64,000 nucleotides of DNA, taken from positions 868,001 to 932,000 of the forward strand of contig JAYWIR010000041.1 in assembly GCA_036172245.1 (NCBI GenBank). Reading direction: 5' to 3'. The notes under the pieces are model-generated. The model was not told the origin of the DNA, searched no databases, and saw nothing but the letters and a program-made list of their open reading frames with translations. Within the stretch, counting starts at the first letter, position 1; every line of letters starts with the position of its first letter. This document shows, in pieces, positions 12,091 to 61,100 of this stretch. The DNA comes from Raillietiella orientalis. Its lineage: Eukaryota. The position numbers and the translations under genes were made by a program.

Positions 12091-15000
12091 TCACAGTCCA
12101 GGAATAATGTATGCAATATTATCAAAACATTTCAGCAAAACATCGTCTTTTATCACATTCATGTCAGGAACTTTCAATGTGAGTGTAAGAAGAGGTGCCA
12201 AAGAGCATACGAGAGAATCCAAAAGCACAGACAGACTTCCAGAAACTGCCACAGTACCCTGGAAAGGGAAACCATAAGGTCGACTTAATGCTCTTTCACC
12301 TACAGCATGTTCTTTAAGTTTGGAGCCTATATTTGTGAGGCATTCTCCAATCAAAGCAAGGTATGCAGCAACATCCACAGGTTGTGTACCAGTAGATTTC
12401 GCATTATCTTCAGAACTGTTTTCTTCAGATTGGGAAATTCTAAAACCAAACATGCAAAACTATCAACAACAAGAGTAAATTATAAAACAATAAAACACGC
12501 AGTAGTTTTGTTGAAAACAGAGATAAATGCGTGACCCTAATATATTCAATGTTCTACGAGTTTCGAAAATACACATTCATTGCTTTACATGACTGAACAA
12601 TAGCCTGCTTCTACATCCAGGATACCACATGCAAGGAGACATAACAAAAATTCTCAACCTACTTCCTATGTTTCTTTGATGATAAGTTCTTGGAAAATTT
12701 TCCAGTCGAGATGATTTTAGCTTTCTTTCCACTTTTAGTTGTTGTGTATGACAGGGCTTTTTTCTCAGATTCTCCACTCAGAGTACGTTCCACTTCATTT
12801 CGATATTTCTAGAATTAAAGTTCATAAAAAATTTAGCATAAGATCATACTTCTCTGTCAGCAGCTGGAAGCGATTTCCATATTTCGCCCAGTTTTCTCCT
12901 GATTCCAGAAAATGCTATGCACATATACGTTAATATTAATTATAATCAAGGCTGCACTCATAAAGTTTCAAATAAAGCACTTCACACTTACGAAGGTCCG
13001 GATTGCTGCGCTGCACTTGCTTTTTGGCATCACGCATCCAAAAATTAAAGGCTTGAAGATTGATGGTGTTCTACAAGTACATAGGATCCCAAATAAACTT
13101 TTCAAACTTAGTTTCCAATTGTTTTTATTCTATTCAGAATGAATCCAAATCGTTTGAGTAAAATGATTTATTAACATTAAGTGAAAGGGACTGCTTATTT
13201 TATGATTAACAGAAAAAAATGTCATCACTATCCAAGAAGACTAGACTTTTCTTTGGGTGAACAGAAAAATGGCACAAAGCACCAAAAACACTGAACATAA
13301 AACACACAGTTGTTAGTGCTCACCAACACTGTCTTGAAAAAAAGACTACAACAAGACATCACTGACAGTGGCACAAACAACTTCTAATTATATGGCACTT
13401 CACGACTAGAAAACAACACAACACTCAAAGTAACCAATTACCAATACTAAACTCTTTGATTAGGAATTCTAACAAGACTATTTTCCTAACTCAAGATTAA
13501 GCTAGTGCACACAATTAATTACAATTCAGACATATTCCAAAATAGTGGCCAACTTCCTCTGGAGGCACTGGGTGAAGATTTCAAATCAAGGTTTTTTGTC
13601 TGTTATAAAAAGAGACTTGCAAAACAAAAGTTGACTCCAATTGGCACAAAAAAGATGAAATTCACAAAGATGCACAAATCTAAGTTCCAAGGAGAGGCCA
13701 CTGTACAATTATGATTGGAGCACTGGATACTGCACTACCTGACTCTCCAATAGCACCTTTCAATTGCAGATAGCAGGGAGGAAATGGAGTCCAATTACTT
13801 ACCACAGTTAGAAAGAGGTGCTACAGAATTAGCTGGATGAAGAGATAGAATTGGAGTCAGTCTTCCTGAAATAGGAGCTGAACAGAATGAAGAATGCATA
13901 GAAGAGGAAGAGACTTGCAAGGACTCCTCAAGGATATTCAAAGACTCGGTTAGATAACTTTGGAATGCTGTCATGGCAGCAACAATAGCAGGTGTACCAA
14001 AGCCATGGGTGATTCTGGAAAATTTCTCCAAAGACGTCTGGACATCTGCATCCAGAATGGCGGTGGGATTGGTGTGGCACAATGGTGATCGATCTTTGTT
14101 TAACACATCTTTAAAGCCAAAAACCACTTGGCTAGCAGCTAACAGCAGGTTTCTATAGCGGACTTGTTCCATGGCTTCTCCTTGCTGCTGGCACATATAC
14201 AATGCCACATCCCTTGCTGGAAATTCGGTCTCACAAACAAATCCAAAGTCTTTGGCAAGATGAATGGCTTCACTTTCCACAAGGGCAGTGAGTAATGTGG
14301 TGCAATTGGACCGACGCCAACCAGCAGGAATACTCATTCCCAGACCTGATAACTTTTGACGAAGCACCTGTCCAGCATTTTTTGATTTGGCTCTACGCAA
14401 CATAGAACCCAAAATGGATACATTCAGGCTCTCAGGGGGAATCAGACGACGTTGGATTTCTCCCACAGTCACACGATATTTGGGAGTCGAGCTCAACAGA
14501 GATAGACGCCCTGGTACTGTGCAGAACACATCTGAAGCATCGACATGAGATGCTAATTTATAAAAAAAGTCTTTATCTCGAGTCAAATCTTCTTCAGTTT
14601 CAAAATCATTTCTGCTAATTACAGAGGTTCCTGAAAAATCTCCATCGAAATTCATGGGATCATCCTCTTCCTCACTATCAGCATCTCCTTCCAAGTCTTC
14701 ATCAGAAAGGATTGCTTTATTCTTTGGCCATTTTGGGAAGGAATGAACACTACTTGCTTGTTGAGTGAATGACTTGCAAGTAACTGTCTCTGTCCCATTA
14801 TTAATCCACGAATCTCTCAAACTCAAATCCAGGACCTGTTCAACTGGCCACTCCTGATTTGTGGGCTTCTGAAGCAACTGTTTGAGCAGCTGCTTTGATG
14901 CACTGTTACAAGTTACATCCCCATTGACCCCCTTGTTGGATACACTTTCATCCTCCTTCTTTATTAGTGTTTTAATAACATCTTCTGACTGATCCTGTGG

Positions 15001-18000
15001 CAAGTTTTTGTGGCTCACAAGCAGCTGAAAGAAGGCAGCACGTCAGAAACACAAAAAGGCAGGATGAAAATTCGTTACAGACAAAGTTCTGACCTGTTGA
15101 TCTGAAACAAGTAACTCAATTCTTTTAATATATCTTAAATCATACTCAACATGAACTAGTAATTCACCATGAATGAAACTACTACGATTCATATTAGCTA
15201 CTTGATGAGAATGCTGTTCAGCATCTTACAAGAATATCTGATTGTTACTATAATTTAAACGCAATAATTTTTTTTACATCTTACATGGTTCTTATGTATC
15301 AAGACTATGGAAAACAGAGCAATATTACCATGCTTGACTGAAAAGCTTAACATGACAAATCCAATGAACTACTTTTTTAATGCTTCATTCCAGATAACTG
15401 TAGGCTTACTGGACACACATGGCAAATGCACAGAAATATCTATTATAGGCCTAAATTTTGCCTAAAATCATTGAAACCTCAACATTTTGCTATATTTTTA
15501 TGAGCACCTCATGAAACAAAAATCTGCCATATGTTTTTGTGCAGGAAGCATAGAATTTAATATTGAGTACAATCATGGAATCACTAAGTCATGTATTCTG
15601 TACTAACAACTTGAACTAAACCTATAAAATATTTGTCTACCTGAGACAAGTGCTTGCCAATGAATAACTTCACATCATTTAGATATCTATACAAAGCACA
15701 AAGACCTTTGCACACCATATACACCCTGGATCTTAACATCATTTACAGTTAATCAAATAGGGGAGAGTTACAGCTACAGGAAACAGCCAAATATAAACCT
15801 ATTACAACTACAACAAATAATTAGCCTGATGAACCATACAAGAATCAATCCAATTTCAATTCATTATGACTTGTTGCTCATTATTTAACTTGCACAATTA
15901 AATACTCACCTGTGATTTTGCATCTCGTTTGAAATCCATTTCGTCAGCAGCATCTAAAATATCAAAAATTATGGTGACTGTAAGAAACATTTAGAGAATC
16001 ATCTTCTTTAGGGCACATGCATTGAAACATAGAAAAATTAAAGAAAGCTTGCAATACTGAAGCTATGCTATTTTTTGAAACCACACAAGGGATTCCTAAG
16101 TATAGAAATTATAAAAAAATTCATAACAATATGCAAAATGAAAAGTCATAGCAGAAACACCAAACTCACTCAAACAGACTGAAATAGAAAAGGTAATCAA
16201 AAATACACATTGAAACATGAGCACACGGAATTCAATGCACAAGTTCTGAAAGCAGCAGACTTTTTTCTAAATGTACATATTTATTCCTGGTAAATTGAAT
16301 GACAAAGAGTTGTCAACTACAAACATCACCACTCAAGTAATCACTATGGAAAAAGCTTCAATGAACAATCCAAGTCACATCTCATGATGTCTTACAAAAT
16401 GAAACAGCAAGACATTTTCAATTATTCAAAATGTTTTTTTCTTTTTTATCAATAGGGTATAAGTTGCACCAAAGAAGGTACCACACGAATTTACTAAATT
16501 AAAAGCTAATGAAAATATATGCAAGTCTAGCTGCTTAGCCAATTGTATGGGATGCAGGCTAAAACTTACTAGGGCATTCAATTTTTGCTCAGTTGCTAAC
16601 GTTTAAGTGGATGGCTCCAAGAAATCAACAAATTAACATATAAATAGAAAACTATTTGAATAAGCAGCTTAAAAAACTGAATTTCATTGAACATTTTGCA
16701 TGCACAACATCCAATAAAGTAAACTGATCAAGCATATAGAAGGAATGCTGGACATTAAAATGTTCACATTTTATTGCAAATTATATTAGTATGTAAGTTA
16801 CACTCGATGAAAAACAACAGGAACAAATGCATAGCATTTCTCCTGTGTTTTTAATCTTAGCACAAGACTCTAAACTGAGTGAAAACAAGAACAAATTACT
16901 GATTACTGCTGACTATCAGCAACTATATTACACAATAATGATAACTAGCACAAAATTATCATTGTCAGCACTTTCATTTTGTTTTACACTTCTGTATTTT
17001 CATGAGCTCTAAATCTCACTTTATAAACAAAACACCGACATTCAACAGAAAACCACAGCAAATTAGCACCTCTATGTCAATGTATGAGCATCTACTAGTG
17101 CTTTTTATTTGAGCTGGGAATTCTTCTCCACATTAATTAAGCAACTCACCTGATGATTTGCTTAGTGTATTCCCTTCATTTATTTCATAAAAATCTTCAC
17201 TGAGCATGGAAAATGAATCTGGATTCTAAAATAAATATTTCAAAAGTTTTAGATGCATTCTACATGAAAAATGCTTTTATGACACATCAAATTACAAAAC
17301 TCTCATTAGTCAAAAACAACTGTTGAACATTGAATTATTTTGATGTTACTAAACTGGAATCAGAACACAGGTATAAATACCAACTATATATTAACTGCTG
17401 ATAAAATTGAAATCTGAAAATACTAGATGGCAACAATGCTAGATTACAAATTTTCAATACATAAATAAAGTAATGAGATTACACACATGCAGTATGGATT
17501 TCTAATTCAAAAAACTGCTATTTATTAGTATTACTGTAGTGATTACCTTGAACTTAATTAAAGGTTTCTTTGATCTTACAGATGCCTCTGTAGCTGGTTT
17601 TGTTTTGGTAGGGGATGACTTTGACTTCTTTGGCGAATCATTGATTAACACACCTTTTTTCTTTACCTTTTCTTGATTGTTTTCTTCAGAAGAATTCAAA
17701 TCAAATAATTTTGATGACTTCTTTCTTATACGACCAGATCTAGATACACCACACACCTCAAATTCTAAAACCAATGTCCATTAATTAAAATGATGATTCA
17801 CAACATTTATTGAACATTGAGAAATTGAAGGAATTAATTGTGATGCTTACAAAACATGCTAAAAATGCTAGGAATTCAAACCTCAGAAACAATGCACAGT
17901 GATGTCATGATGCATTTTGAAAATACCAAATATTTTTTCAAATAGCATAATGAAGGAAGTTCTGCACCAAAATGGTTGCATAGTATTTTTTGTAAAGAGG

Positions 18001-21000
18001 ACCTCACTTTTTTTTTTATTGTTTTGATATATTTCATTACATGTGTACATATTTTATCACGATGTCTTTCACAATACCTGATTAAAAGAACCTAATGCTG
18101 CATACATTGATGATAACAAGCAAACACAATTTGCACATGCAATAATGGACATATTTATTTTTCTGTTCTCAGTGCTCATTCTGTCCTGCTGATGACTGGG
18201 TGTTTATCATCATCATAATTTACAGAGTTCCATTTCTGATTTTTTAAATCTGTAAGTTTCCTGTTTCAGTTGGGCCACAATGAAATATGTTCCTTCTTTA
18301 TTGTTTTTCTGTTTTCAAATATTTATTGTTGAACTGTTTTCAGAAATTGAAAGTAAACACTATGGTTTCCAATTACTGATGCAATATACTTTGCAAACAG
18401 AAAAACATATTTTCTAGTTTGTATAATGGTTATTGATTTAGTTTATCAGATAAAATGTACTTGAGGAACAAGACATGGTGAAATTAATATTTGATAACAA
18501 TGAAGGTGATGATATAATAGAATAATATTGTTTACAGTGGGTTATTTGAATCATTATGATGAAATGAAAAGAAATAAATACATTATATATTTTAAGCACA
18601 CAACCAATATTCTTTTACATTTACAGTTGGGCAAATCTTAAATCAAATACAGCAATGAGTAAAATTTTGGATACAGTCAATAAGCTACTAGAATGAAGCA
18701 TCTTAATGTTTCAGTGAAGTTTGAAAAAAAAGTCTGGGAAGGAAGGACAGAATCCTCAAAGCCTTGCAAATACAAATATACAATTAGTTGATGATGATGA
18801 CCAAGCAAACAAATGCTATGGGATAATGAACAGAAAGTAACTTGGATGGATGTCAGTTACATTTCATTGTTCAATGTGTTCAGTTATAGACCAGTTACAC
18901 TTTGTTTTGCGTATACTGACAGGCTAAATGGAAATGAATTCACTAAAAAAATCGACACTAGCTAAAGGTAAGAAATCACACATGCACACAGAAGAATGGG
19001 AATCATAAAAGGTGAATTACAAAACCAAAAACAAAACATTAAATGCTCATAGTAGTAAAACAGGATCCAGTTCAAATGAGAACCAACTGAAAGATGTAAA
19101 AAAATTCGACTATAGCAATTACAAATAAAAATGAAAATACTTTATTACACATAAATATCAACAAAAAATGACAACCTTTTATAGTTTCTTCTGGTGATTA
19201 ATCTTCTATGAAGAAGAAATCATAATGCAAAACTAAGATAATTCTGATATTTAAAAATAAACACATCTTGCTAGATATGTTTGCAATGGAAAATGCAATA
19301 ATGACTGCAGTAAACATATTTTTTTCAGGGAGAATGGAGGATGCAATTGATTCTCCACAAGATGAATAGTAGCAAATGATTAAAATATGTACGATTTTAC
19401 AAAAAAAAACCCACAATATACAACTACCAATGTAATTTCCTTTGTCCTGCATATAATCATCGAATAAATAATTTCATCTTTCTGTCTTAAAGATTTCTGT
19501 GGTTCTAATGCATTCTATGCATACTTTAAATAGAAATTGAGGGTCACTATTATATCAGTAGTTTACCAAGTAATTACATCAATATATTCCTACTACTTTA
19601 TGGGAAAATTTGAATTCCAAATTGGGAAATAATTTTCCTATTTGAAGAAACGTCGATATTTCTATGCTATGCATGAATTCCTTTAATCATGTTTTAAAAT
19701 ACTCATCAATTCATCTTGTTAATGCCATTGTCAAATAGTTTATTGTTCATCTTACTTAAAACAATTATTTTACGCCAAATCACTAAAATCATTTTTACAT
19801 TTGTTGATGCTAAACCCAATGTAACCATAATACTCATATTATTCAAAAAACTCTTTAATATATTCAAAGTGTCCTTAATAATTAAGATGAAGGAAAACGA
19901 TAATACTGATTTAATTCAATATGACTGGTGATGGGGTAATACTGGTTGTGCAACTTTCATTGTCAACTCAATGCCTATAACTTTATAATTTCAAGGTTTA
20001 AATAGACTTTCACCCTACAGTGTCTTCTGAATGGAGAATTCATTTGAAAAAAGAAAATAATGCCTGGAGTTATACAATTAATTAATGTCCCCACTAGAAA
20101 TTTTACTTTTCATTCTCACAAAAATCACCATCTATGTTTTCTAGAATTCATCTTGCTAAAATGCTCTTCTCTGATATCCACAGTGGTGGAAATAAATCTT
20201 TGATGTTATCAGGATGATCAGAAATACTGTAGAATATTATCACATAACTGACTCATCACTGACTTTTTAACAATACTTTCTCTTTATATCAAACTCAAAC
20301 TCCAAAAAGTGCCACTTGATGAATTTGGCTCTCAAAATCTCTTCAAACTGCCAACAACAAACTCGAAGAGTACAACTAAACAGTTCTCAGGGCTGCTAAT
20401 TAAATGTATGTTGATTTTTGCATGACTCAAAATAAGGTATGCTTGATCTTAGCAAAGTTTCTAAGTTTCTTACAACTGAGCTTGTTATGGCAGCATAAAA
20501 ACTTTCACAAATATTAGATTAGTCTAATGGTTTCATAATATATATTCACTACTATCACAGTCTGTTACACACATCACCAAAGCATCACTTCAAAACTGAA
20601 AGTGAAAATTGGTTCAATATATCTTTCAACATTAAAGATAACAATACTTTCATTTTCAAAGTAAATCCAATTCCAATTTTTAAGCACATTGCATTCTAAG
20701 TCTCAAAATTTAGAATTTTCTCTGTCCAATTTGCCACATGATTGGCCAACTGCAAACACCTTGCCAACAAGAGTACACACATGACCATGCAGAATTCTGG
20801 ATGTCAATTTTACTCAGAATTTTATCAATTTTTTCGAATCATATTATTTTATATGCTTTCTGAGGAAAATGGGTAGTCAAAGTCAAATAGACCTTTGCTA
20901 TTTTAGTACAGTCAAGTGGACAAAAATCTTGCGCTATTAGTACATATTGGGCTTGTTTTTGAAACAAATTGATGTATAATATGGAATACTCCAAAACCAC

Positions 21001-22024
21001 CAAAATATGATAGATTCTACATGAATGAAGATTTCTGTTCACTAGTTATCTACTTTCCGGACTCAATAACATCACATTTCTTAGAAATGTTTGGGAATAA
21101 ATGGGATTTTTCCCCAGCTACTCCTATTAGAAAACTAAGCCTTTTTTGAAAGGTAAACTTTTATTTCTTAACTGGATGATTTGCTTAATTATTTCTGAAA
21201 AGCACTTCAACAGGAGAATACTTAAATAAGTTGTATGATGGTGATATACAGCACATTAATGGTCAAGCTGCTGTTGGCTGGACTCAGTGGTTTGCAAGTA
21301 AAAACATTGGAAAACAGAATATTCTTGGATTTCAAAGAAGAGAGTATTACTCACAGTAGTATGGAAAAAAAAGGGCTCTAATGAACTATGTGCACTTGAA
21401 ACAATAATAATTACTTCTGCTATCGGGGTTTGAGGGAAACAAATTTTAAAAATGAGTTTCTGACGCCATAAACTTAAAAAACTGTTTGACTTTCATCTGA
21501 TAGTCCGCTTAGTAAAATTATTAAGCAATAGTTTTACATCCTTGCATACATGTAGACAAGGAAACATTAATCAAGTTTCTAAGATGCTGAAATTTCATTG
21601 TAAAAGTTTTCTAGACTATCCATGATAAAGACCCCAATACTGAGAATCAGTACAATGACACCGGAGGCTGCTACAGTTTCAAAGAACATCTGATGTATTC
21701 ATGCAACTGAGGCTTATTATATATGAAGCATATAATGTAACTTGGCAGGGAGATGTAAACAAATTCAACAACACTAATGACAGTTGAAAAAAAACACCAA
21801 CATTACAAAAGTCAAATAACATTATATCCTTTCGAAATAACGCCTCTGAATGTCACAGATGCATTCAATGAATCTCAGAGTTTCGTTTTAATTGTGCAGA
21901 AAAGCTGTTGAAATTTGAACTCACCTGACTCTCTTGAGCGTTTTGTTTTGGGCTCTTCCATTTCACTTTCTTGTAAATATTCGTAATCACATTCATCTTT
22001 CCTCTTCTTTGGAGATTTTGACAT
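12091..22024 (-). CDS. HMGXB4: HMG domain-containing protein 4 (HMGXB4)-like, 9 exons
   Basis: Exons 22024-21925, 17764-17547, 17225-17150, 15953-15910, 13070-12992, 12914-12850, 12808-12663, 12439-12304, 12258-12091, all GT-AG with matching phases. N-terminal motif [21 protein letters not shown] box [46 protein letters not shown]-terminal signature [13 protein letters not shown]...[23 protein letters not shown]...[16 protein letters not shown] at 12075-12080. Confidence 0.9.
13124..13172 (-). terminator. Candidate polyadenylation signals for the AP-2-terminated transcript
   Basis: Two AATAAA hexamers on the minus strand (13167-13172, 13124-13129) lie between the AP-2 stop and the first HMG-box exon acceptor (13071). 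The region is AT-rich, so chance occurrence is possible. Confidence 0.4.
13795..15024 (-). CDS. TFAP2: Transcription factor AP-2 (TFAP2) family domain as a single large exon nested in HMGXB4 intron 4; probable alternative terminal exon
   Basis: Intact ORF containing [71 protein letters not shown] and [13 protein letters not shown]. There is no ATG at its 5' end (the ORF track start is GTG). It is preceded by CTGAC...CTTCTTTCAG, an acceptor at 15025/15024 in phase 0. Confidence 0.93.
21192..21424 (+). mobile_element. Possible decayed mariner transposase fragment in HMGXB4 intron 1
   Basis: FLKSTSTGE...YD and [13 protein letters not shown]...TIIITS loosely resemble the mariner FL.RIVTGDEKW..YDN and KVMLSVWWD.KG...TI.S motifs, in the expected order. 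Confidence 0.3.
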
Positions 22025-37100: not shown

Positions 37101-40100
37101 AAAGCATTCGAACTACAGAAAATGATGGGATTTGCAGAAAATGACGGCAAATGACATGCGCAGTGTGGGAGCGTAGTTTGTCCCACTGTGCAGGTAGTGG
37201 TGGCTCCGAGGGGGAAACCCTTCTAGAAGAAACAGCGAATAGCGGAAGAGCACTTGGGGTAAAAAATGAAGATCCAGGAACTGCTTAGTTTAACGTCCGG
37301 AAGAACTGCCCGATGATGATCTGCTTCTAGATCAACAGCGAGCACTTGAAGAAGCCGACAGCAGTGTCAAGGGAACGTGATGCTGCTGCTGCAAGTGAAG
37401 GACTTGAAAGTGAAGTCACACTCAAGGGTATTGAAGATGTCCTTCAAGCTGTAGTTGGTTAAAACAAGAAATTATGGATGGGGATCCTGACCTAGATCGG
37501 AGCATGCGAATTCGTCGGCATGTCCACAATGGCAACATGTGGGTGGAGATTTGAAGAAAAGTAGAAGAGCTCTCCCTACTCTAATAAAATATCCCGAATG
37601 CAGTAAGGGTGTTCTTGTCCACATGAGGTTTGCCTTCATGGATAATCTTTAGAATCTTTTCCTTTTTATTCTGCTCCCTGTACTCTGGGACTTTGCTAAC
37701 AGCCAATTTACATTTAAGTCTTCTTAAGGAAATATTTGCAATATTCCCTCGGGAAGCATAAAAAGACTTAAAAATTTTTCGATTGATCTGAAACCGATAA
37801 GATATTGTACATAGATAGAACTGTATGTTTGTTCGTGTAGTGCGAATTCGGATGCAGCAACTATTTTATGGAACGAGGTCTTTTCACTATCGCGGTCTGC
37901 CTGCATGTGGTACTCACCTCTCTCTTTCACTCATTTCAAATACTCCTGATGAAAAATCGTCTTCATCGAAATACTAAGCTAAGTGAAGATTTCAGCGAGT
38001 GTTTATCGATAGAGCCTGATTTACTCAGGACACATTTTGAATCATGCCAAATTAGCTAACAGTCAACAAAATAATACGTACTTTGGTATAGTATTCCAGG
38101 ATAAACTCTTCATTAATCATCCCCAGAGAAGTGAACATGTTGTCCGGATAGGCAACAAACTTCTTCATTCCTTGGAGTTTTTTCTTGCTTTTCGATTTGT
38201 CAGGTTCACTCATCCATGTGGCTCCGTCGATGAGGCGCTCCACTTCGCTCTGGATTTGGGACGCCAGTATGCTGGCCTGGGACACGAATACACTGATGAG
38301 ATCAATGGTAACACGATTACCCAAAAGATTCCAAACACCTATATCATGCAGCACTCACTCCACATCCCTTTCATTCGAAATTTCTCTTCCTAACGAAGCC
38401 GAAAGATCAACTTCTCGATCGTCACATCGTCACTCATTCCTACTTCAGGTCAAAAAACTGCATCTTTCCCCCAGCGTTTCTGCCAGAAACGACGTCCCCT
38501 GAGGTTGGTTGGAACTTGAAAAGGCCATCTGCACGGTGGGGTAAGAGGTAACCAATATTATACATCACCCGGTCCGCGGATCTTCCAAGGAAGAACAGTC
38601 ATTCCAGTTGACTGCTGAAGTTGAATTCGTGAAACCAAACACCAAGATGCAGCTTTTGCGAAAGGGATTGTCTTCCCACACGCAAGCTTAGAAGATAACC
38701 AAGAAATCTTCAAAATGTCTTCTGTTTTTTGAGTATTCTGGGTAAAAATGTGCCATCACGTGATCGCTTGCAGATTTGCATGTCCAGGGAGTCTTATTAT
38801 GCTCCTGCTGTTATGTGGGAGTCCTGTCTTTGTATCATGATTTGGAGTTTTGTTAGTCGAGGATTCCTCGTCGAGTCCGTGGAAGAAAGCGTGCGTAAAA
38901 TAACACAGAGGCAGAAATCCTCCATTTTTTCTTTCCAATTCCAGGAGGGTTAAGAACGCGTAGAATGGACTCGACGACTCGGGAGGAGGGAAAATAAGTG
39001 GATAAATGAGGGATGCTGAAGGTCATCTTTTAGAATTATTTTATTTTTGGTAAACATATTGGTCCCAAGGAGTCATTCTCCCATGCAAAAGATGATATAA
39101 GCAAAGGTACTTTCTCTTGAAATATGTGGTACAACCAACGAGTGATTTGTTTTGCGATCACAGCAACATCGCAACCAACAGTGCTTTTCTTTTACGTGTC
39201 TTTGATCAGTGCCTCATTTCGCAAAACCGAACTCCAACGAATGCTACTAAAAATCTACTGGATTATCGTACATTCTAATACCCACATGAAGAGTTCTGCT
39301 CCTCACATTTCTCAACTTCTCTGTTTAGTATTTAACTTGGTATTCTCCGCGAGCCGCTCTTCGTCTTTCAAGTGAATGAATCGCTACTTGGAAATCGGTA
39401 AAGATTCTATGGCCACGGCTATGTGCATTTCTTTCCACGGAAAACACCGTGCGATAATTTGCTTCGGTCCGAGTCTTCAAATTTTTTTTTTTTTTTTTCA
39501 AGAAAAAGGCATCTCGCACAATATCTACCACCGGTTCCAACGGTTGTTTTCTTCTTGCCGAGTCCCAAGCACATTTCGTGAAATCCTGCAATCTAGTCTG
39601 CCTAAATCTGGAACCTGGATTGGGAAGAATTTCTTCGGGACAATGACAAATGGGCCAACTTCTTCAACAACATAGAATAGTTGTCTGTGGAGCACGCCGC
39701 ATGGCTCCATCATAGATTTGATTCCTGACCTCTGTGAATGCGAATGCGTACAGTTAATTTGCTTCCAGGTACTAACCATGCTACCATGAGGTGACACCTC
39801 GGAGAGATATCTGATTCTGCGGAATGCTTCGGTTTTCAATCGACCGGTATCGACCGGTTTTCAATTCCGATCCACGAGTTCCTTCACCATCAAGTCTGGC
39901 AGTTTTTCTTCCACTTTCTGGGGACTAGTGCTGACTGAGACAGTAATCGTAAAATATCCAACGGGGTTGAAGATGCTGCGAAAATGCTGACACATTTTTC
40001 AGGAGCGCGCTCGAAAATAAGACTATGTTTGCTCAGCGATACTTGAGGAATCGTTTCCATCGACCGAGATGCACATCAGCGAGGTCAGCTCAGCGTCTAG

Positions 40101-49100: not shown

Positions 49101-52100
49101 AACAGCTGCGGATTTACAAGCTGGGAAGCCCTAACTCAAGAGGTCATGCCATTGGCTCGCATCAACCCTACCGTTTCTCATGAGGATCCTCATTCGTTCC
49201 TACTGTGGGTTCGGGAATGGAACTCTTGCACACTGATGACTCAGTGTCTGTGGACAGCACATTCATCCGTAGGGCGAACAGTAGGCACTCCGTTTTCACC
49301 GGAGGGTCCCAGTTCCCTGGTCAGAATGGTGCATGACAGCAGACGAAAATCTCAAGGCGCCATTGCGGCAAATACCTATCCACGGGCTAAACGCACACTG
49401 GCAATTCTTCAGGATAGGGTGCACCCCAGGATGGAGGCCTCCCTATGAATCCAGGAAGGGCTCGGATTCTGTTCCTCTCACACTTGGGGAGGGATCCCCC
49501 CGCAGGAGGGGGATTGCACCTCCCACCCTGATTGTCTCCGAAGGGGAATCCCGAAAGGAATCTCCTTCCTCATTCTTTCCGGAGGTACCACCCTGGAAGA
49601 GGGTGGTCCTCTGCATTTCATCTTCTCCGAAGGGAACCCGGAAAGGATCCGCTAGTAGGAATTTCTTCTTCGGAGGGAACCGTAAGGGAACCGCTCCTGT
49701 TCACTCTTCTGAAGAGAACCCCGAAGGGACGCTTCCGAAATTCAGGAGGGGCACTGTAGCTTTCCTCAGGAGAATCACTCTCTCTTGCTTCCTTGCATTC
49801 TGTGAAGAGGCTCGGAGGGTCCCCCCCGCAACAGAAGGGGTCCGCTCCTTTGAACAACTGGAGAGGTGCCTGTGAAGGCTCCTGCTCCATCTTGAAACAT
49901 GAGGGGTCCCCTGGTGAGGGGAGTCCGCTCTCCGTTGCATGACAGGAGGAGGACCTCCCCACTCCTTGATTCCTGGAAGGACCTGAAGGTCGGCTCCCAT
50001 TGCTCCGACTGTCATCGGGGGCCTCCGGCTTAAACGACCACCGGCTCGAGTGTCTCGGCCGCCATTGCAGGAGAAACCCAACGACGCAGTGGCGTCAGTT
50101 TCTGCCGGGGTATTCGAACCCGCGACGCATGCTGCCACACGCGGAAGCCTTAACCACAAAGCCTCCGACGCCGGCTTTGTGGAGCTGGACAAGTTTCTCT
50201 CCTGAACCTCCCAGCGAGAACAGATTTTCTCTGGTCCCCCACTGATTTCTCAGACCCCTTTGTTCTCGGATTTCTCTCTTTCAACAGTTTCAAAATTTCT
50301 TCTACTCGCGCCTCACTCCCCCCAAAACCGAACGCATCCAGGAAATGCCGTCCGTGTCCTTGCCGTGACGGATTTCCGCACCCTCGATCGGGTGCTTCGG
50401 CTCTCTATGGGCGAGTCTCAAAGACACCGTTCAGCACATGCCGGATTTTCGAACACCCCCGCTACACTGGAAAATCCACTTCCAAAAACACTTCAGAAAC
50501 AAAGAGGAAGAAGCAAAAGAGCATCTGTAACGTGCACGGACTAACCTGCGTTGACGCAAACGTAGTAGGCCATTTTCATATTGTCGATCATGGTGTTGAA
50601 CCCCATCGTCTTCTTGTCGAACAGATTACCTGTGCCAAAGGAAGCTACTATGGGAGACAGGAATCAGCATGCTTTAGCTTACTCAGGATTTGGCGACGGA
50701 CCATTCTTTGCAAATGGGTCCGAACTGAGATTGGCTCGTCCTTTTTAGCGAAGGGATGAAGGCTTTGCCAGTTGTGGCAAACGAAAGAATAAAAGTCTCT
50801 GCAAGGGTTCGCCTGCATGTTCATCAGTTCCTGCAACTCTTCGGCTGGAAAAAGCATCAACGAGGAAAACTCAGGCTTTACGTAATGCACACACAGTGTA
50901 CTGTGTGGTGTAGATACACAGTACACACATGTGTGAAATTTATCTAAAGCTTGAGATTGATCTGCCAGCATGCTTCTCCCAAGCATACAGGGTGTGCAGT
51001 ATGTATGAGAGTCTCGTTTAACATTTCTAGAGTGAAACTCCGGTTTTAAAGAAATGGAACCTCGACCACTCGAATTATCTGAATTTGTGTGCGAATGCTA
51101 AATGGTCAGTTCCTTGCAGCGTAGCGAGCAGTAAAGAAAGTTCTTTAGACCGTTTGATAGGAAGAATGAAACCGATTCCCGAGGCGAGAAGAATCGTCCG
51201 GAAGATACGATGCCGATAGAGAAAGCACTTTCTTAAGATATGCCCTCTAATTTTGATCTCACCTGTCTCGATGCACGTAGGATAATTGCATTTCATCGAT
51301 TGATTACTTAGCTCATCCAATTCGTGAGATAAATCTTTGATTATGTTCAGAACTTGCGAATCATTCCTCTTTCCCAGTTCTTTTATTTCCAGTCGAACGT
51401 CCGATGTCAGGTTCTTCAGATAATTCCTCAACTCTTCATCTGAAAATTAAAAGTTGAATTTCAAGGAGAGCTCTAGACGGAGCTTCAGGATTCTTTTGCT
51501 CTTTAAATGGTGGAGTTCAGCAAGAAAGGGAAGAAAGGAGGAAAGAAAAAACAATTCACACGTAAAAGATCAGCAAAATAGGAGAAGCACCAGCATTTTG
51601 GAAGACGTGTTTTCAATCACGAGTTTCATAGATGCAGTACTGCATACTGGAAAGGGTGCTGAGCTGCATCCTGCCAAGATGTCACCAAACGCTCGATCAA
51701 CTCTTTTCTTGTTTGAAACATCCGCTCTATGTCCTTCTAATGGCACGATCATTTCGGAAAGAAAAACCCCGCAGGAAAATAAGGGAAAATAAGGGGTAGT
51801 TTGTTGCAGTTGAGTTACGCGAAAATTGCAATGGAGACTTCGCTCAGTACAATACAGAATTCGTTTCTCGAAGAATAGTTTAAACCTTGGCTTGTTTCTT
51901 TCACCCAAGTGTTGTGTCGTTCGGAGAAGATTTGTTTTCCTCCAATACTCACAAGACAGCGATGCTTGCTTGAACTGTCATCGTTACCAGAAGACCCTTT
52001 CGTTTGCTTTACCAGATTTCGAAAATGACCACAGACACGTTTTTTTGGAGTCGACTCATTCAGCGGAAATGGAAATTCGGTGGGAATTTTTCTCTCCTTC

Positions 52101-55100: not shown

Positions 55101-58100
55101 TTCTTCGTTGGAAAGTTTTTTCCAAAGGACCACTCAGCAAACAATTTTCACGCCTTTATGATTTAAAGATTGATAATGGGGTCACGGATAAAGAAACAGT
55201 GGAGTAAACAAAAGGAAATTCTACTACCTTTGGAACCTGGCGCTCAATCGGTGAATTCCAAGGAAGAGAAGTATCTACGACTGTCAAAAACAGAAGAATG
55301 CCAAGAGATGAGGTTGGTTTATGGAAATTTTTTGATTGAGAAAATTTTCTAACAAGGCGTGTTTGAGGAAAGGCCCAAGGCGAACAAAAAAAAAGACGGA
55401 AACCAAATTACTCCGAGCTCAGTTCTGCAGCTTGAATAATCTCCGATGATGTCTGATTAAAGAATGGAAAGTGATTGTGGATGCTGCAGGAACCACATAG
55501 GTATGTGACCTGGCAAAATCCAGTCTAGAAAGTTCGACTGGAGTACACAAAAAAAGAAACGATGTCGGACATCTTTAAAAGCCTCAAACATAGGATGATG
55601 GAAATCCTTTTCTGTCTTCGCAGTTCTTCGACACGGTTCCACGCCACCCGAGGGTGATTAATTCTTCAAGATAGGGGGTACCCAGGAGGGGTCCGCCCTA
55701 TGAATTCAGGAAGGACTCGGAGTCCGTTCCTCTCACGCCTGGGGAGGGATCCCCGGAAATGGAGATCACCTCCACCCTGATTGTCTCCGAAGGGGAAACC
55801 AGAAGGGAATCCTCCTTCCTTATTCTCTCCAGAGGACCCCCGGCGGGGTCCGCTCCATTCTTTCTTCTCTGAAGGGAATCCGGAAAGGATCCGATCCTGG
55901 AATTTCTTATCCGGAGGGATCCCGCGCAAGGGATTCGCTCCTGTTTTTACTCCTCTGAAGAGAACTCAGAAGGGACGCTTCCGAACTTCAGAAGCAGCAC
56001 TTCCCCGAAGGGATGGGCTCGCTTCTCTGCACTCTCTGGGGAGGTGGTGGCGACACACCTACTCCATCAGTCCGATGAGGAGGAGTCCCCCCTGGAATGG
56101 AGGGTCCGCTCCTTCACAACCGTAGGGGAGCTCCCACTCCGTGATTCCTGGAAGCACCCGGAGGTCGACTCCCATTTGTCCCGGCCCTCATCGGGGGGGG
56201 GGGCATCCGGTTTGAGCTGCTACCAGTGCCGCACCCGGACTGAATGTAAGCCAACCAGCGTCATCTCGTGGGGTGAATTCGGAACCCCACGACGCACTTC
56301 GTCGATTCCTTCGCAGTATTCGAACCCACGGCGCATGGGGCCACGCGCGGAGACCACTGTAACCACACGGCCTCCGAAGCGGACAAATCGTACGTTAACG
56401 AATGCCCGTGGACACTAGCGCATTCAATGAATCGAATCAGGTTGATGCAAGCTTCGAGTTCAAGGTTATGGAATGAAAGCAAAGACAGAATGATGACTGA
56501 ATCTTCTGACATGACTTATAAGGGAGTAAACAACAGATTAAAGAATTCCATATAAAGAGTTGCTTCATAAATGAACTAAACGTAGCCAGAAATGCCCCCG
56601 ATAAATTGGCATCTGAAATCAACTGCAATTGACTGTAATAACTTCACAACCAGAGAAATAAGGAGCGACGACAATCATCGGATGGATCCAACTCATTCGC
56701 AGCATCTGAGAGATCACCAGGACGATTTGATGAATCAACCGCAAGAGAATAATGCAGCACATCAGGACTTTCCTGTCCCACCATTCGTTCGCGATTGATT
56801 TACAAAGTCCTGAAGGGTGCATGCAAACTGAGCACCTCTTGGCATCCGTGGATTTCCGAAAGCAGCTTTGACTCGAATCATCTCTTCGAAGAGCTTGAAA
56901 GCTTCCTTCAAGTCCCTCGTGGATCCATGAGTGTCACAGTCCTCGGATCGCCTCTTCGTTCACTTATACCCGTGGGGCTCGGTTGAGTGAGCGCGGAGAA
57001 AGTGTTCTACCTACAGACCTCCCGGTGTACTGCACCTGCTTCGACGGTACGTACACTAAAATCGGAACTTCAGAATAGAGAGTCCAGTGATACGCCCTGA
57101 TAATTATCCCGATCCACCAAATTACATTCCACAACTACGTAAGCCAACCATATTTGTGACCATACTGTTCAGCATCTTATCTCTCCCAATCCAGTCGTGA
57201 TTTGCTAGACATCTGGATCTCCTGTTTTGGTATTCACGGCAAACTCGGGCTTATCCGAATGCTCTTGCCTGACTGCAATCACCAATACAGTGGTCGTAGG
57301 GGAAAATGGCTTTCGTAAGCAACCGAAACCTCCAACAGAAACCATGCAACTTATGTTTACATCGCTCTCTCAAGCCGAAAATTTACAGCCAGTCGATCGT
57401 ATCTTAATTGGCAGTTTCAACGTTTCTCCTCTCCGAGGTATCTTTCTTCTTCTTCTTCTGTATTCGAATTTCTTGAAATTCAAGGATTCCTCAAATTCTT
57501 CGTAAAGCCGGCGAACGCCGGTTCGTGAAGTAAAAACTACCGAAAGCTCTTTGTCTGCACGTGCCCTCTATACACTCAGTCTTCATAGGTGATCTTCACT
57601 TTGTGGACCTTTTTAGAAGGTATTGATGCTTTCTGCAGGATCGCGAATTTGGGTGTATGCGAACCAGGGCTGGCGAGAGGTTCTTTTCTTTTCCCTTTTT
57701 GCTCTTTTCGAACGATCGCCTTGGGTTCTACTTTATGAGTTGGGTTTACTTGGCAACGGGGGTTAAAATCTTAGAGGCTTCACATACCTTTTTATGGAAA
57801 ACAACTCTCCCTAAAGTATTCATTTTTTTATGCTGCTGGGAGTCCTTAATCCATCATGCCTAATCCGAGAAATGTCTCGATAATCATGGTGAGATAACTT
57901 CGTTTTGCAAGACAGCACATCAAAGTTGTTGGCTATTAGGAACACTCATTCCGAAATACTAGTTTTAATTAAATTCAAAGTTCAAATCTTGTTTTAAAGG
58001 TCAAGAAACGTTGGGTAACAGGTTCAGTACGAGATCAGCAACATTCATTCATAACTGCGTTTTATTCTTATGATGAGGATCTTTCCCAAAAGCTTCACAT

Positions 58101-61100
58101 CTCATGGATTATAAAACAATCGATAAAGAGATCTCTTGGTTGTCTTAATTGACCTTTCATCATAAATTTCATATAAATTTCATTAAGAACTTGTTCAAAG
58201 TTCCCAACCGAAAAAATAGTTTTTCCTCTTTTTAAAGGCCTTAGCATGCAGCGATTCCAGCAGTACATTTTATAAATTCAGTACTGGCACAAATGCATAC
58301 CAAAATGACGAATATTCATATTCTCATTGGAGTAATCAGAGTGTGGAATTGCAATGTTCAGTTGACATTCTGACTCCAGTTGTCAGTCAGGCTTATCTTC
58401 AACACTAGCGTTCCGTTCAAGACTTTTTTCGGGGTTCTCTTCAGAGTGAACAGGAGCGGTTCCCTTGCGGGTTCCCTCCGGAGAAGAAATTCCTATTAGC
58501 GAATCCTTTCCGGGTTCCCTTCGGAGAAGATGAAATGCAGAGGACCACCTCCTTCCAGGATGGTCCCTCCGGAGAGAATGAGGAAGGAGATTCCCTTCGC
58601 GGTTCCCCTTCGGAGACAACCAGGTTGGGAGGTGCGATGATCCAGCGGGATCCCTCCCCAAGCGTGAGAGGAACGGACTCCGAGCCCTTCCTGGATTCAT
58701 AGGGCGGACCCCCATCCCGGGGTGCCTCCTATCCTGGAGAATTACACGCCCCGTGCGGGGTTGCACGCAGGGGAGAGGCATGGGAATAAAACTGTGTGTT
58801 TAAAGAGCCACGTGCGCCGCGAGGCACGCGACCGGCTCTTGAGGTACTTAGCGAACCAAAAAAAAAAGACTTCTTTCGTGGTCCAGACGAGGTTCGGGCA
58901 CCCTTCGCAACGAATGCAAAGCCAGAAATGTTAAACAGCAATGTATCAACAAAAATGAATTGCAGCTGTTCTCTTAAAATCGCAGTGTGAGGATCAAACT
59001 CTTTCCTGGGCGTTCCTTTCTTGTAACTGAGTTCGGCACGATCGCATGATTCCCGGACTTGATAGTGACTGAATACCAAATCATGCCTCGGTCGTGGAAT
59101 TTCATTCCCTTCCGTCAAAATGTAGGACCTCATCCTTCTATGAGAAATTCCCAGTCAGTGTTGGAATGTTTTGTTCCCAGCAAGTACTTTGCTTATCTCC
59201 TTTACCAAAGAACGGTTCGCCGAGTCCCTTATTGCCGTTTCTCGTTCACTTGACTGCCGTGATCCTGCTTTTGCAGTTCGACAGTGGACCGCTGATAAGA
59301 GACCTACTTTCTCGGAAGCGTGAGACGGGTCATTCGCAGTTCTTCTTGCGTCCATGCTCCATCACGCGAAGATAATTTTGAAACTTGCTTTTTTCCTCAC
59401 TCCTCCCTGCTCTACCTCCGTTGCTTCCTCCGGGAAGCGGGTATCGGATATCTGAGAGGTTATCGTAGTGTCTCAAAGATCCTGATTTGAGGTCCTTTAT
59501 TGAGGTTTCGTTCTTTCACCACGCAGCAAAATGCTTCTAGCCGCGATGGACGTGCGATCCCCGGCTTTGCTCTTCTGAAACGCGTTTCTAATTTTCTGTT
59601 ATTCATCCGTCTATCCATTCCGGAGATCATCACACTCACGATTTTAAGAGTGGATAAATCATCCATCCGCGGCAACTAGAGAAATGACTTCTCGTCCAAG
59701 TGGGATACGCCCCGTTTCTGTCCCCTGACTGCACAACCAATTCGTATTGTGGGCACAGGGAGATCCTTAGCTTCGGTGAGAGTTCTCTCGAATGCTATTC
59801 AAAAACCTTCGAATTCTTACCACTGCCGTTCACAGGTGCTGACAGTCTTAATAGCTGTCTTCCCTCATTCACTTCCTCGAAAGCGCTTCCTTGTTCTGCA
59901 TCTTCCCCAGAATTAAATCATGATCTTCATCCACCCCCAGTTATCGTAAATGACGGCAAAAGAATGGGGATGTTTCCTTAGAGTCAAAAATCGAACGAGT
60001 GAGGGGTGAACCGATTTCATGCCACCATTTCCGGTGCCGACTCGGTCTGGGAAAAACTGCATATTCGGAGGTTTCTTTCTATTCGAAAATGTAACTCAAA
60101 CTCGAAACTGCTCAGGGTTTCACAGATAGCTGCCAGCTGGCGAGCAGCTCATCATTGCCATGTCAAGAATTCTATTCTTTTTTTTTGAAAACTCCGTGTT
60201 TCTTCCTTGAAAAAAAAAAACCAAACTTTCCTTTTATTTTTCCTCAACTCGAGCTTTCATTGTGGAACTCCTTCCGAGATGGCAGCTCTCTCAAAGGTCA
60301 TCACAATGAAACGAAAATCCAAATCAACCAAGGGTGAAAAAAAAAAGATATCAACTGAAATGATCGGTACATTGGGAAAAATGCTGCCAGCAGCGGATTC
60401 TTTCAGTGGGAAGGGGTGAATTCCCAACTCTCTCCCTGTCGAGGTCATAAGAAGCTCTCCTGAGCAAGGTTTCCTCTTCAAAAACCTCAACCCCAATGTG
60501 GAAAAAGTTCAGTTCCCTCTCCGTCAAGATGAGATCACGCAAAGAGTCCCTCACAAGAGATTGGGAACCTCAACCGATTCAATGACGTGCCCTTGCGCTT
60601 AAGAGTTTTTGTGATCCTCGCTGACAACCGAGTTCGGTTTCCTCGCCTTCATTTGCAGCATTTCCGGTTTCTCTTGCTGTGTCTGCTGCTCCTGTCAGAC
60701 ACTCTTGTGTTGCTTTCTCGAAGTAAGACTCCATTCCATTGCATCCTATTTTTTGAACTTGGAGAAAATGGCTTAAATAAAAGGGGGGGGGGGGAAACTG
60801 AAAGAGCTTCCTAACCACTACAAGACTCCCACGGTTTAGCGATGGGATTTATTTTCTTTTCTTTTTTTCAGGTTCCACTTTCATGAATAACATTTGATGT
60901 CCTTGACCGATTTTCGATCTGAAGCTTGCTGTGAGGTCTGAGTGTCCTGCATCGATTGCAGGAGTCTGTGAGATGACCATGTCTCTGGTGAGAAAAATAG
61001 CTTCAAGAATTTCTACTGCCACTAAAGGAGCTTCAGTTTCACCGAAACTGTAAGAAATATCAGACTCCGACTAAAATTTCACGCCCCCATTCCAGATTCC

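Follow-up and report, generated by a model that had tools for sequence, protein, structure and literature searches.

A predicted chimeric HMGXB4 gene with an intron-free AP-2 exon as an alternative 3′ end, in a layout shared with the ostracod Darwinula stevensoni

In a 64,000-nucleotide (nt) stretch of Raillietiella orientalis DNA (the window), we find that the gene encoding HMG box-containing protein 4 (HMGXB4), located on the minus strand, contains within one of its introns a long, intron-free open frame for a complete AP-2 DNA-binding domain, and that the ostracod Darwinula stevensoni has this layout too, with an in-frame path leading from the HMGXB4 N-terminus into the AP-2 domain. The best reading of this locus is that of a chimeric gene, conserved with D. 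stevensoni, that has two alternative 3′ ends; we assign it a probability of about 0.6. Here, an intron-free copy of a divergent AP-2 gene would have entered, in the sense orientation, the HMGXB4 intron that immediately precedes the HMG box; transcription would begin at the HMGXB4 promoter, and the donor at 15910 would take one of two acceptors. In the first route (15910 to 15024), the transcript would end after the AP-2 exon and encode a protein of 555 amino acids (aa), i.e., 146 aa of HMGXB4 N-terminus, then a linker of 166 aa that has no known relatives, then the AP-2 DNA-binding/dimerization domain. In the second route (15910 to 13070), the AP-2 exon would be skipped, leaving HMGXB4 in its ordinary form of 343 aa, which has the HMG box and the C-terminal domain. 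Use of the 15910 to 15024 junction, the terminal status of the AP-2 exon and its origin by retroposition are what we infer from the arrangement described below.

The host gene is identified as HMGXB4 (HMG2L1) from its sequence, in agreement with an earlier description of this locus (the original prediction). Its spliced model, translated directly from the coordinates, runs from 22024 to 12091 in nine exons and aligns end to end with proteins named HMG box-containing protein 4, with E values down to 3e-50; for example, model residues 22-343 align with residues 1-311 of a 311-aa aphid protein. A word-index search gives the same name to relatives of the host in many insects, and the first match in an Atlas search also bears it (score 0.83). 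For exon 1, alignment of residues 22-61 matches the N-termini of HMGXB4-family proteins, and exon 2 contains the family N-terminal motif SRSGR(I/V/L)(R/K)K, which occurs in 157 of 276 family proteins with a median start position of 23. The C-terminal 115 residues match 303 representatives at E ≤ 0.001, with the listed matches always C-terminal, and have the family ending ...AYI(I/M)PGL. Exon 5 alone (26 aa) gives a sub-threshold HMG_box match in Pfam (E 0.048), and the full spliced model aligns over the HMG-box region of its relatives. Using Pfam, we scanned the 107 of 150 listed HMGXB4 matches that have at least 250 aa, and found an HMG-box family in 86, DUF4171 in 10 and TF_AP-2 in none; PF03299 is likewise absent from all 120 listed HMGXB4 relatives with precomputed domains. 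The host gene has the N-terminal motif and C-terminal domain common to this family, with a probable HMG box between them, and the scanned members, unlike the window locus, have no AP-2 domain. DUF4171, carried by so few of the scanned relatives, was not detected in the host (exon 2, E ≤ 10), and a search with the exon-2 protein against longer proteins returned nothing at E ≤ 10. Separately, we observed two HMGXB4-family proteins, P0209 (194 aa; cluster n = 15) and P0206 (284 aa), that have the N-terminal motif and the C-terminal domain with only the first few HMG-box residues; these may represent a form of the family that lacks the HMG box, with P0206 containing no Pfam family and P0209 judged by reading alone.

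The exon structure of the host gene agrees with that proposed originally, except at its 3′ end. Exons 1-4 total 438 nt, placing the end of exon 4 (15953-15910; donor CAG/gtgagt, with the slash marking the splice boundary) in phase 0, and the acceptor at 13070 (ttgtag/AAC), which opens the HMG-box exons, is also phase 0, both as first described. The last exon had been read as a single unit; it is split by a 45-nt intron (12303-12259, minus strand) that is in frame, free of stop codons and bounded by GT...AG, and the removal of which closes a 15-residue gap relative to homologous proteins and raises the alignment scores. The introns, in order, are 4160, 321, 1196, 2839, 77, 41, 223 and 45 nt long. 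Since three of these are 41, 45 and 77 nt, this genome clearly uses very short introns, which can be missed when open reading frames are read directly.

The AP-2 exon occupies the 2,839-nt intron that follows exon 4, as an open frame of 409 codons plus TAA (15024-13795, minus strand). Its identity, proposed originally, is borne out by Pfam, where residues 167-360 match TF_AP-2 (PF03299) over positions 1-196 of the 197-position profile (E 1e-64), and by an ungapped alignment of 207 residues with the TFAP2A structure 8j0k (E 8e-74). In TFAP2A, the reported DNA contacts include G216, R217, S222, T224, K226, S247, R254, R255, A256, K257, S258, N260 and G262 (PMC10450164). All 13 of these contact residues as given there are identical in the AP-2 exon when the numbering is mapped via the 8j0k alignment, and it is because of this conservation that the domain is expected to dimerize and to read GCC(N3)GGC-like sites. 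Similarity to canonical AP-2 proteins begins only at approximately residues 113-125. Three introns found in canonical AP-2 genes (after residues ~211, ~251 and ~299 of our query, in loci among L004-L022 of a metagenome scan) are all absent. The domain also contains AGWRR instead of AGRRK, the form present in 111 of the 120 listed AP-2 relatives; this change is specific to a clade of four sequences, described below. PPxY is a motif of the AP-2 N-terminal activation region. Of 85 canonical relatives whose N-terminus is at least 150 aa long, 49 have it; it is absent from the AP-2 exon and from the other three members of the AGWRR clade. Compared with canonical TFAP2 (structures 8j0k and 8j0q), the AP-2 exon thus has the full-length DNA-binding and helix-span-helix region with every contact residue, and differs in being free of introns, in having neither a PPxY-bearing N-terminus nor a start codon of its own, in its AGWRR sequence and in lying on a long branch.

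As first described, the AP-2 exon has no ATG at its 5′ end; its first ATG is codon 130, and the preceding 129 codons nevertheless have the properties of coding sequence. They remained open in only 16 of 20,000 simulations using the composition of the region itself and in 1 of 20,000 using intron composition. With a codon score trained on the other exons of the gene, they give +0.24 per codon in frame against -0.24 and -0.30 in the other two frames, which is above every one of 162 intron chunk-frames (maximum -0.152). GC content climbs from ~0.30 to 0.42 at the 15024 acceptor, and an in-frame TGA (15045-15043) shuts the frame six codons upstream of it. A region that is coding, without an ATG and closed so near its 5′ end, therefore needs an upstream coding exon in order to be translated. 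The alternative is that this is an intron-free AP-2 gene translated from Met130, with the 129 codons as a 5′ leader or relic, and a 280-aa product with a short acidic N-terminus. The point at which canonical AP-2 similarity starts agrees with this, Met130 aligns with a Met-Met in the relative P0003, and in P0002 of the ostracod Cyprideis torosa a Met precedes the VPGRLS motif of this domain by 50 residues. We consider translation from Met130 very unlikely, since the upstream codons are open far beyond chance with in-frame coding statistics like those of the domain, and since the frame begins exactly at a good acceptor, six codons past a stop.

No relative of residues 1-112 was found using Pfam, BLAST/phmmer or Atlas. 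For residues 1-166 the sole Pfam match was ELP3_N (E 0.05), which we take as noise; neither BLAST nor phmmer aligned residues 1-160 with any of the 120 listed AP-2 relatives at an E below 1; and an Atlas search of residues 1-129 gave no usable match. An origin of the linker within HMGXB4 was considered and rejected: the lowest E that BLAST returned for residues 1-166 among 150 HMGXB4 relatives was 0.62, and the linker is therefore not derived from this family. An LxxLL-type motif is present in the linker (AP-2 exon residues 43-52, ~14880-14900, minus strand), and the D. stevensoni linker has similar Leu-rich patches.

The splice sites at this locus are compatible with a single promoter serving both 3′ ends. 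The nearest upstream exon on the same strand, exon 4, has the right phase and a donor that scores 9 of 9 on our scale, and it is proposed as the common donor for both downstream acceptors. The phase-0 acceptor at 15024 (...ctttcag/CTG), with its upstream CTGAC (15046-15042), was found exactly as originally described; with pyrimidines at 13 of 18 positions followed by CAG, it is the best of the eight acceptors we scored in this gene, and only 14 of 196 AG sites in the interval match or exceed its pyrimidine count. The exon-5 acceptor is weak by comparison (pyrimidines 10 of 18, no CTRAY), and the 15024 acceptor precedes it on the host pre-mRNA. Phases and splice sites therefore permit both predicted isoforms from one promoter. 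A GTAAGT that overlaps the AP-2 stop codon could be the mark of a composite terminal exon, or could be due to chance. Use of this site as a donor, which would make the AP-2 exon internal, was rejected as the main route: joining it to 13070 shifts the frame, with a stop after 8 codons.

Further evidence for a chimeric gene comes from D. stevensoni. When the 146 N-terminal residues of the host were compared with the 120 listed AP-2 relatives, a single protein, P0032, stood out (E 1.8e-4, 58% identity over 33 residues). This is CAD7246849.1, a 526-aa protein of D. stevensoni that has no name in public databases, and the only one of these relatives with the HMGXB4 N-terminal motif. Residues 1-113 of this protein resemble HMGXB4, with 153 alignments among 276 family proteins at E ≤ 0.01; residues 21-113 are 41% identical to an HMGXB4-family protein, reaching the start of the HMG box in that protein, and residues 306-500 are a TF_AP-2 domain of the AGWRR type. 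CAD7246849.1 is collinear with the proposed 555-aa chimera (residues 39-513 against 25-507, E 3e-81). The next accession, CAD7246850.1 (P0216), contains only the C-terminal part of HMGXB4, with both proteins encoded on 72,136-nt contigs. By this pair of adjoining models, D. stevensoni has an AP-2 exon between the 5′ and the 3′ exons of HMGXB4, and can be read in frame from the 5′ exons into it; this is the nesting for which the original prediction had suggested looking in related genomes. The nesting therefore predates the divergence of D. stevensoni from the lineage of the window's organism, and makes it unlikely that the window is misassembled, which had been named as a finding that would undo the proposal. 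For the D. stevensoni annotation, as described in PMC8049415, MAKER drew on genome-guided transcript assemblies and on protein evidence, both for training and as a guide. The fused model is probably not an accident of annotation, and CAD7246850.1 is probably the rest of the same gene.

The AGWRR sequence is carried by the window domain, P0003, P0002 of C. torosa and P0032 of D. stevensoni, and this clade is thus present in at least two ostracods. P0003 is 69% identical to the window AP-2 domain over 235 residues. In a quick, midpoint-rooted tree of 86 distinct domains (at least 170 aligned residues) from 121 sequences, these four group together (SH-aLRT 100), and a long branch lies between them and 82 canonical domains that are very uniform. 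A long branch and the absence of PPxY together fit a replaced N-terminus. Within the clade, the window domain pairs with P0003, outside the pair of D. stevensoni and C. torosa, and the nesting is therefore likely to be as old as the clade itself. Judged by these neighbors in the tree, the window would come from an ostracod or a close relative of ostracods. A metagenome scan using the clade alignment found 22 loci, all of them distant canonical or other AP-2 genes, with no close relative among them. In three of the contigs (L001-L003) the AP-2 domain (46% identical) is a single uninterrupted 657-nt match, and intron-free AP-2 domains are thus also present in another organism. In P0002 (CAD7226998.1), the first half of the AGWRR-type domain occurs twice with a 43-residue spacer; this resembles an assembly duplication, tandem or of haplotypes, with both copies merged into a single model. 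No HMGXB4 model from the 52,327-nt contig of P0002 occurs among the matches listed. The 120 listed relatives include canonical AP-2 proteins from dozens of arthropods, and D. stevensoni and C. torosa are each represented there only by the AGWRR type. This pattern could mean that, after an ancient capture that brought AP-2 under the HMGXB4 promoter and N-terminus, ostracods deliver their AP-2 domain only as an HMGXB4 chimera through mutually exclusive 3′-exon choice, with no separate canonical AP-2 gene remaining; we regard this as quite doubtful, and draft assemblies could explain the pattern equally well.

The same comparisons bear on whether the AP-2 exon yields any product. A dead or dying retrocopy, or an assembly artifact, would agree with the location of the exon within an intron. 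Such an explanation is extremely improbable given the intact 409-codon frame, the full-length Pfam match, the conservation of all 13 DNA-contact residues and the identity to P0003, together with a clade that extends to at least two ostracods and an identical layout in D. stevensoni.

A number of findings weigh against a chimeric gene with two 3′ ends. The phase match between exon 4 and the AP-2 exon, stressed originally, is real, but two of the four upstream donors are compatible; because exon 2 also ends in phase 0, the match is approximately a 1-in-3 event and not strong evidence. The AATAAA sequences noted downstream of the AP-2 stop codon are present as described, but they carry less weight than was claimed, since they occur at chance level, with 18 minus-strand copies in the ~10 kb of this gene. 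We found no A-tail and no convincing target-site duplication at the AP-2 insert, only 12-26-nt repeats at chance level; an old insertion would be expected to have lost such traces. The linker is not significantly similar to that of D. stevensoni by Smith-Waterman alignment, with 683 of 2,000 shuffles scoring as high, and the corresponding comparisons with the C. torosa and P0003 linkers are also not significant (164 and 1,380 of 2,000 shuffles, respectively). The join in CAD7246849.1 may be an ab initio annotation merge. Both P0002 and P0003 are modeled without an HMGXB4 N-terminus, with P0003 beginning at its own Met, and no transcript-derived (Logan) protein of the AGWRR type occurs among the 120 listed matches. 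Finally, the 885-nt gap between exon 4 and the AP-2 exon contains 22 candidates for a private first exon (ATG...GT, phase 0), such as 15192-15094 (donor CAG/GTCAGA) and ATG/GTGAAT at 15170-15168; the 69-nt intron that would follow 15094 is feasible because this gene has introns of 41, 45 and 77 nt.

These last points lead to the main rival explanation, that the AP-2 exon belongs to an independent, nested two-exon gene, with its promoter and a short ATG-bearing first exon in 15025-15909 or further upstream, and with any chimeric transcripts being rare noise. In addition to the candidate first exons, the very short introns that are normal in the host gene and the two relatives modeled without an HMGXB4 N-terminus, it agrees with the description in PMC5470649 that most multi-exon retrogenes acquired new 5′ exons near promoters. 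Nested genes also stay nested without any functional link, so that conserved nesting alone is not decisive. We consider an independent nested gene possible, though rather unlikely, for the following reasons. No candidate donor in the gap scores above 6.5 of 9, a score reached by 15192-15094 for example, against 9 of 9 for exon 4, and the coding score of the longest plausible candidate is that of an intron (-0.17 per codon). Any transcription of the host exposes the strong 15024 acceptor to the exon-4 donor, and the resulting product would be in frame. Moreover, the transcript-guided annotation of D. stevensoni gives the AP-2 domain the HMGXB4 N-terminus, and not a private start. The alternative-terminal-exon interpretation put forward originally is partly supported; it is correct in its anatomy and gains support from D. 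stevensoni, with its arguments from phase and from AATAAA being weaker than presented, and a chimeric gene with two alternative 3′ ends is the reading that we favor. The coordinates of all features at this locus are listed in Table 1.

Table 1. Features of the HMGXB4/AP-2 locus, in window coordinates
Feature	Position	Strand	Details
HMGXB4 exon 1	21925..22024	-	ATG at 22024; ends in phase 1; donor CAG/gtgagt
HMGXB4 exon 2	17547..17764	-	bears family N-terminal motif; ends in phase 0
HMGXB4 exon 3	17150..17225	-	ends in phase 1
HMGXB4 exon 4	15910..15953	-	ends in phase 0; consensus donor CAG/gtgagt, 9/9
Gap between exon 4 and AP-2 exon	15025..15909	-	885 nt; AT-rich (GC 0.27-0.35); intron-like
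Branch-point-like CTGAC	15042..15046	-	22 nt upstream of the 15024 acceptor; contains in-frame TGA
AP-2 exon	13795..15024	-	409 codons + TAA; intron-free; first ATG is codon 130
AP-2 exon codons 1-129	14638..15024	-	statistically coding; no detectable relative; no PPxY
TF_AP-2 DNA-binding + helix-span-helix domain	13945..14526	-	residues 167-360
GTAAGT donor-like site	13797..13802	-	overlaps the AP-2 stop codon (…G/GTAAGTAA)
Two AATAAA, candidate AP-2 3′ end	13172-13167, 13129-13124	-	~620-670 nt past the stop; 55-100 nt before exon 5
HMGXB4 exon 5	12992..13070	-	HMG box start; acceptor ttgtag/AAC, phase 0
HMGXB4 exon 6	12850..12914	-	HMG box; preceded by 77-nt intron
HMGXB4 exon 7	12663..12808	-	preceded by 41-nt intron
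HMGXB4 exon 8	12304..12439	-	first half of conserved C-terminal domain
HMGXB4 exon 9	12091..12258	-	stop codon; preceded by 45-nt in-frame intron (12303-12259); AATAAA at 12080-12075

The window as a whole is AT-rich arthropod DNA with no match in Rfam. Outside the HMGXB4 locus, two minus-strand frames (~38050-38350 and ~50650-51100) contain weak Peptidase_M13_N matches (E 2e-6 and 2e-5, respectively), neither of which reaches the Pfam cut-off. With the beginning of the profile matched by the 50650-51100 frame and its end by the 38050-38350 frame, the pair suggests a neprilysin-like gene of more than 12 kb on this strand. We also observed a GC-richer dispersed repeat at 49433-49681, 55688-55754 and 58470-58712, the copies of which are 87-95% alike, occur in direct and inverted orientation (longest match 169 nt, 92%) and are flanked by long open frames on both strands. 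Pfam gave no match for the one such frame searched (49285-49875).

Within the limited collection of literature that we searched, no description of an HMGXB4-AP-2 fusion was found; the fused D. stevensoni model is already public, without a name. If the splice is real, one locus gives rise to two transcription factors that have unrelated DNA-binding folds and a common N-terminus, in an arrangement retained from before the divergence of D. stevensoni and the lineage of the window's organism. It would be a clean natural example of exon capture rewiring a developmental regulator, in which AP-2 gains the promoter and expression pattern of the host and a basic N-terminus that resembles a nuclear-targeting sequence, and loses its usual activation region, and in which any increase in one isoform comes at the cost of the other. 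If the splice is not real, the locus is an ordinary same-strand nested gene.

Two groups of known systems resemble the chimeric gene proposed here. In TRIM5-cyclophilin A (TRIMCyp) and jingwei, described as chimeric retrogenes in PMC5470649, a retrocopy located in or next to a host gene is spliced to the 5′ exons of that host, and accelerated evolution is reported in the same source for chimeric retrogenes derived from Adh. The window locus is like these systems in that an intron-free copy lies in the sense orientation inside a host gene, the 5′ exons of which can supply a promoter, an ATG and an N-terminus; in that the normal host isoform would be kept by skipping the insert; and in that the captured AP-2 domain lies on a long branch. 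As in chimeric retrogenes, the insert contains none of the introns of its parent family. It differs from TRIMCyp and jingwei in that both of its alternative ends encode DNA-binding domains, in being apparently old (common to D. stevensoni), in having no A-tail or target-site duplication, in having an insert without its own start codon, and in that its fusion transcript is a predicted one.

The second group consists of lola, mod(mdg4) and broad in Drosophila, where a common set of 5′ exons is spliced to one or another 3′ exon, each with its own DNA-binding module. The modules swapped in these loci are related zinc fingers, the products of tandem exon duplication. A single promoter and N-terminus, with a choice of 3′ exon that alters DNA-binding specificity, is also the logic that we propose for the window locus. 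Here, in contrast to the lola type, there are only two alternatives, and these encode unrelated folds (an HMG box and an AP-2 domain), one of them imported from another gene. On the basis of this comparison, the closest known mechanism would be that of a chimeric retrogene, and the closest known logic would be the 3′-exon choice of the lola/mod(mdg4) type.

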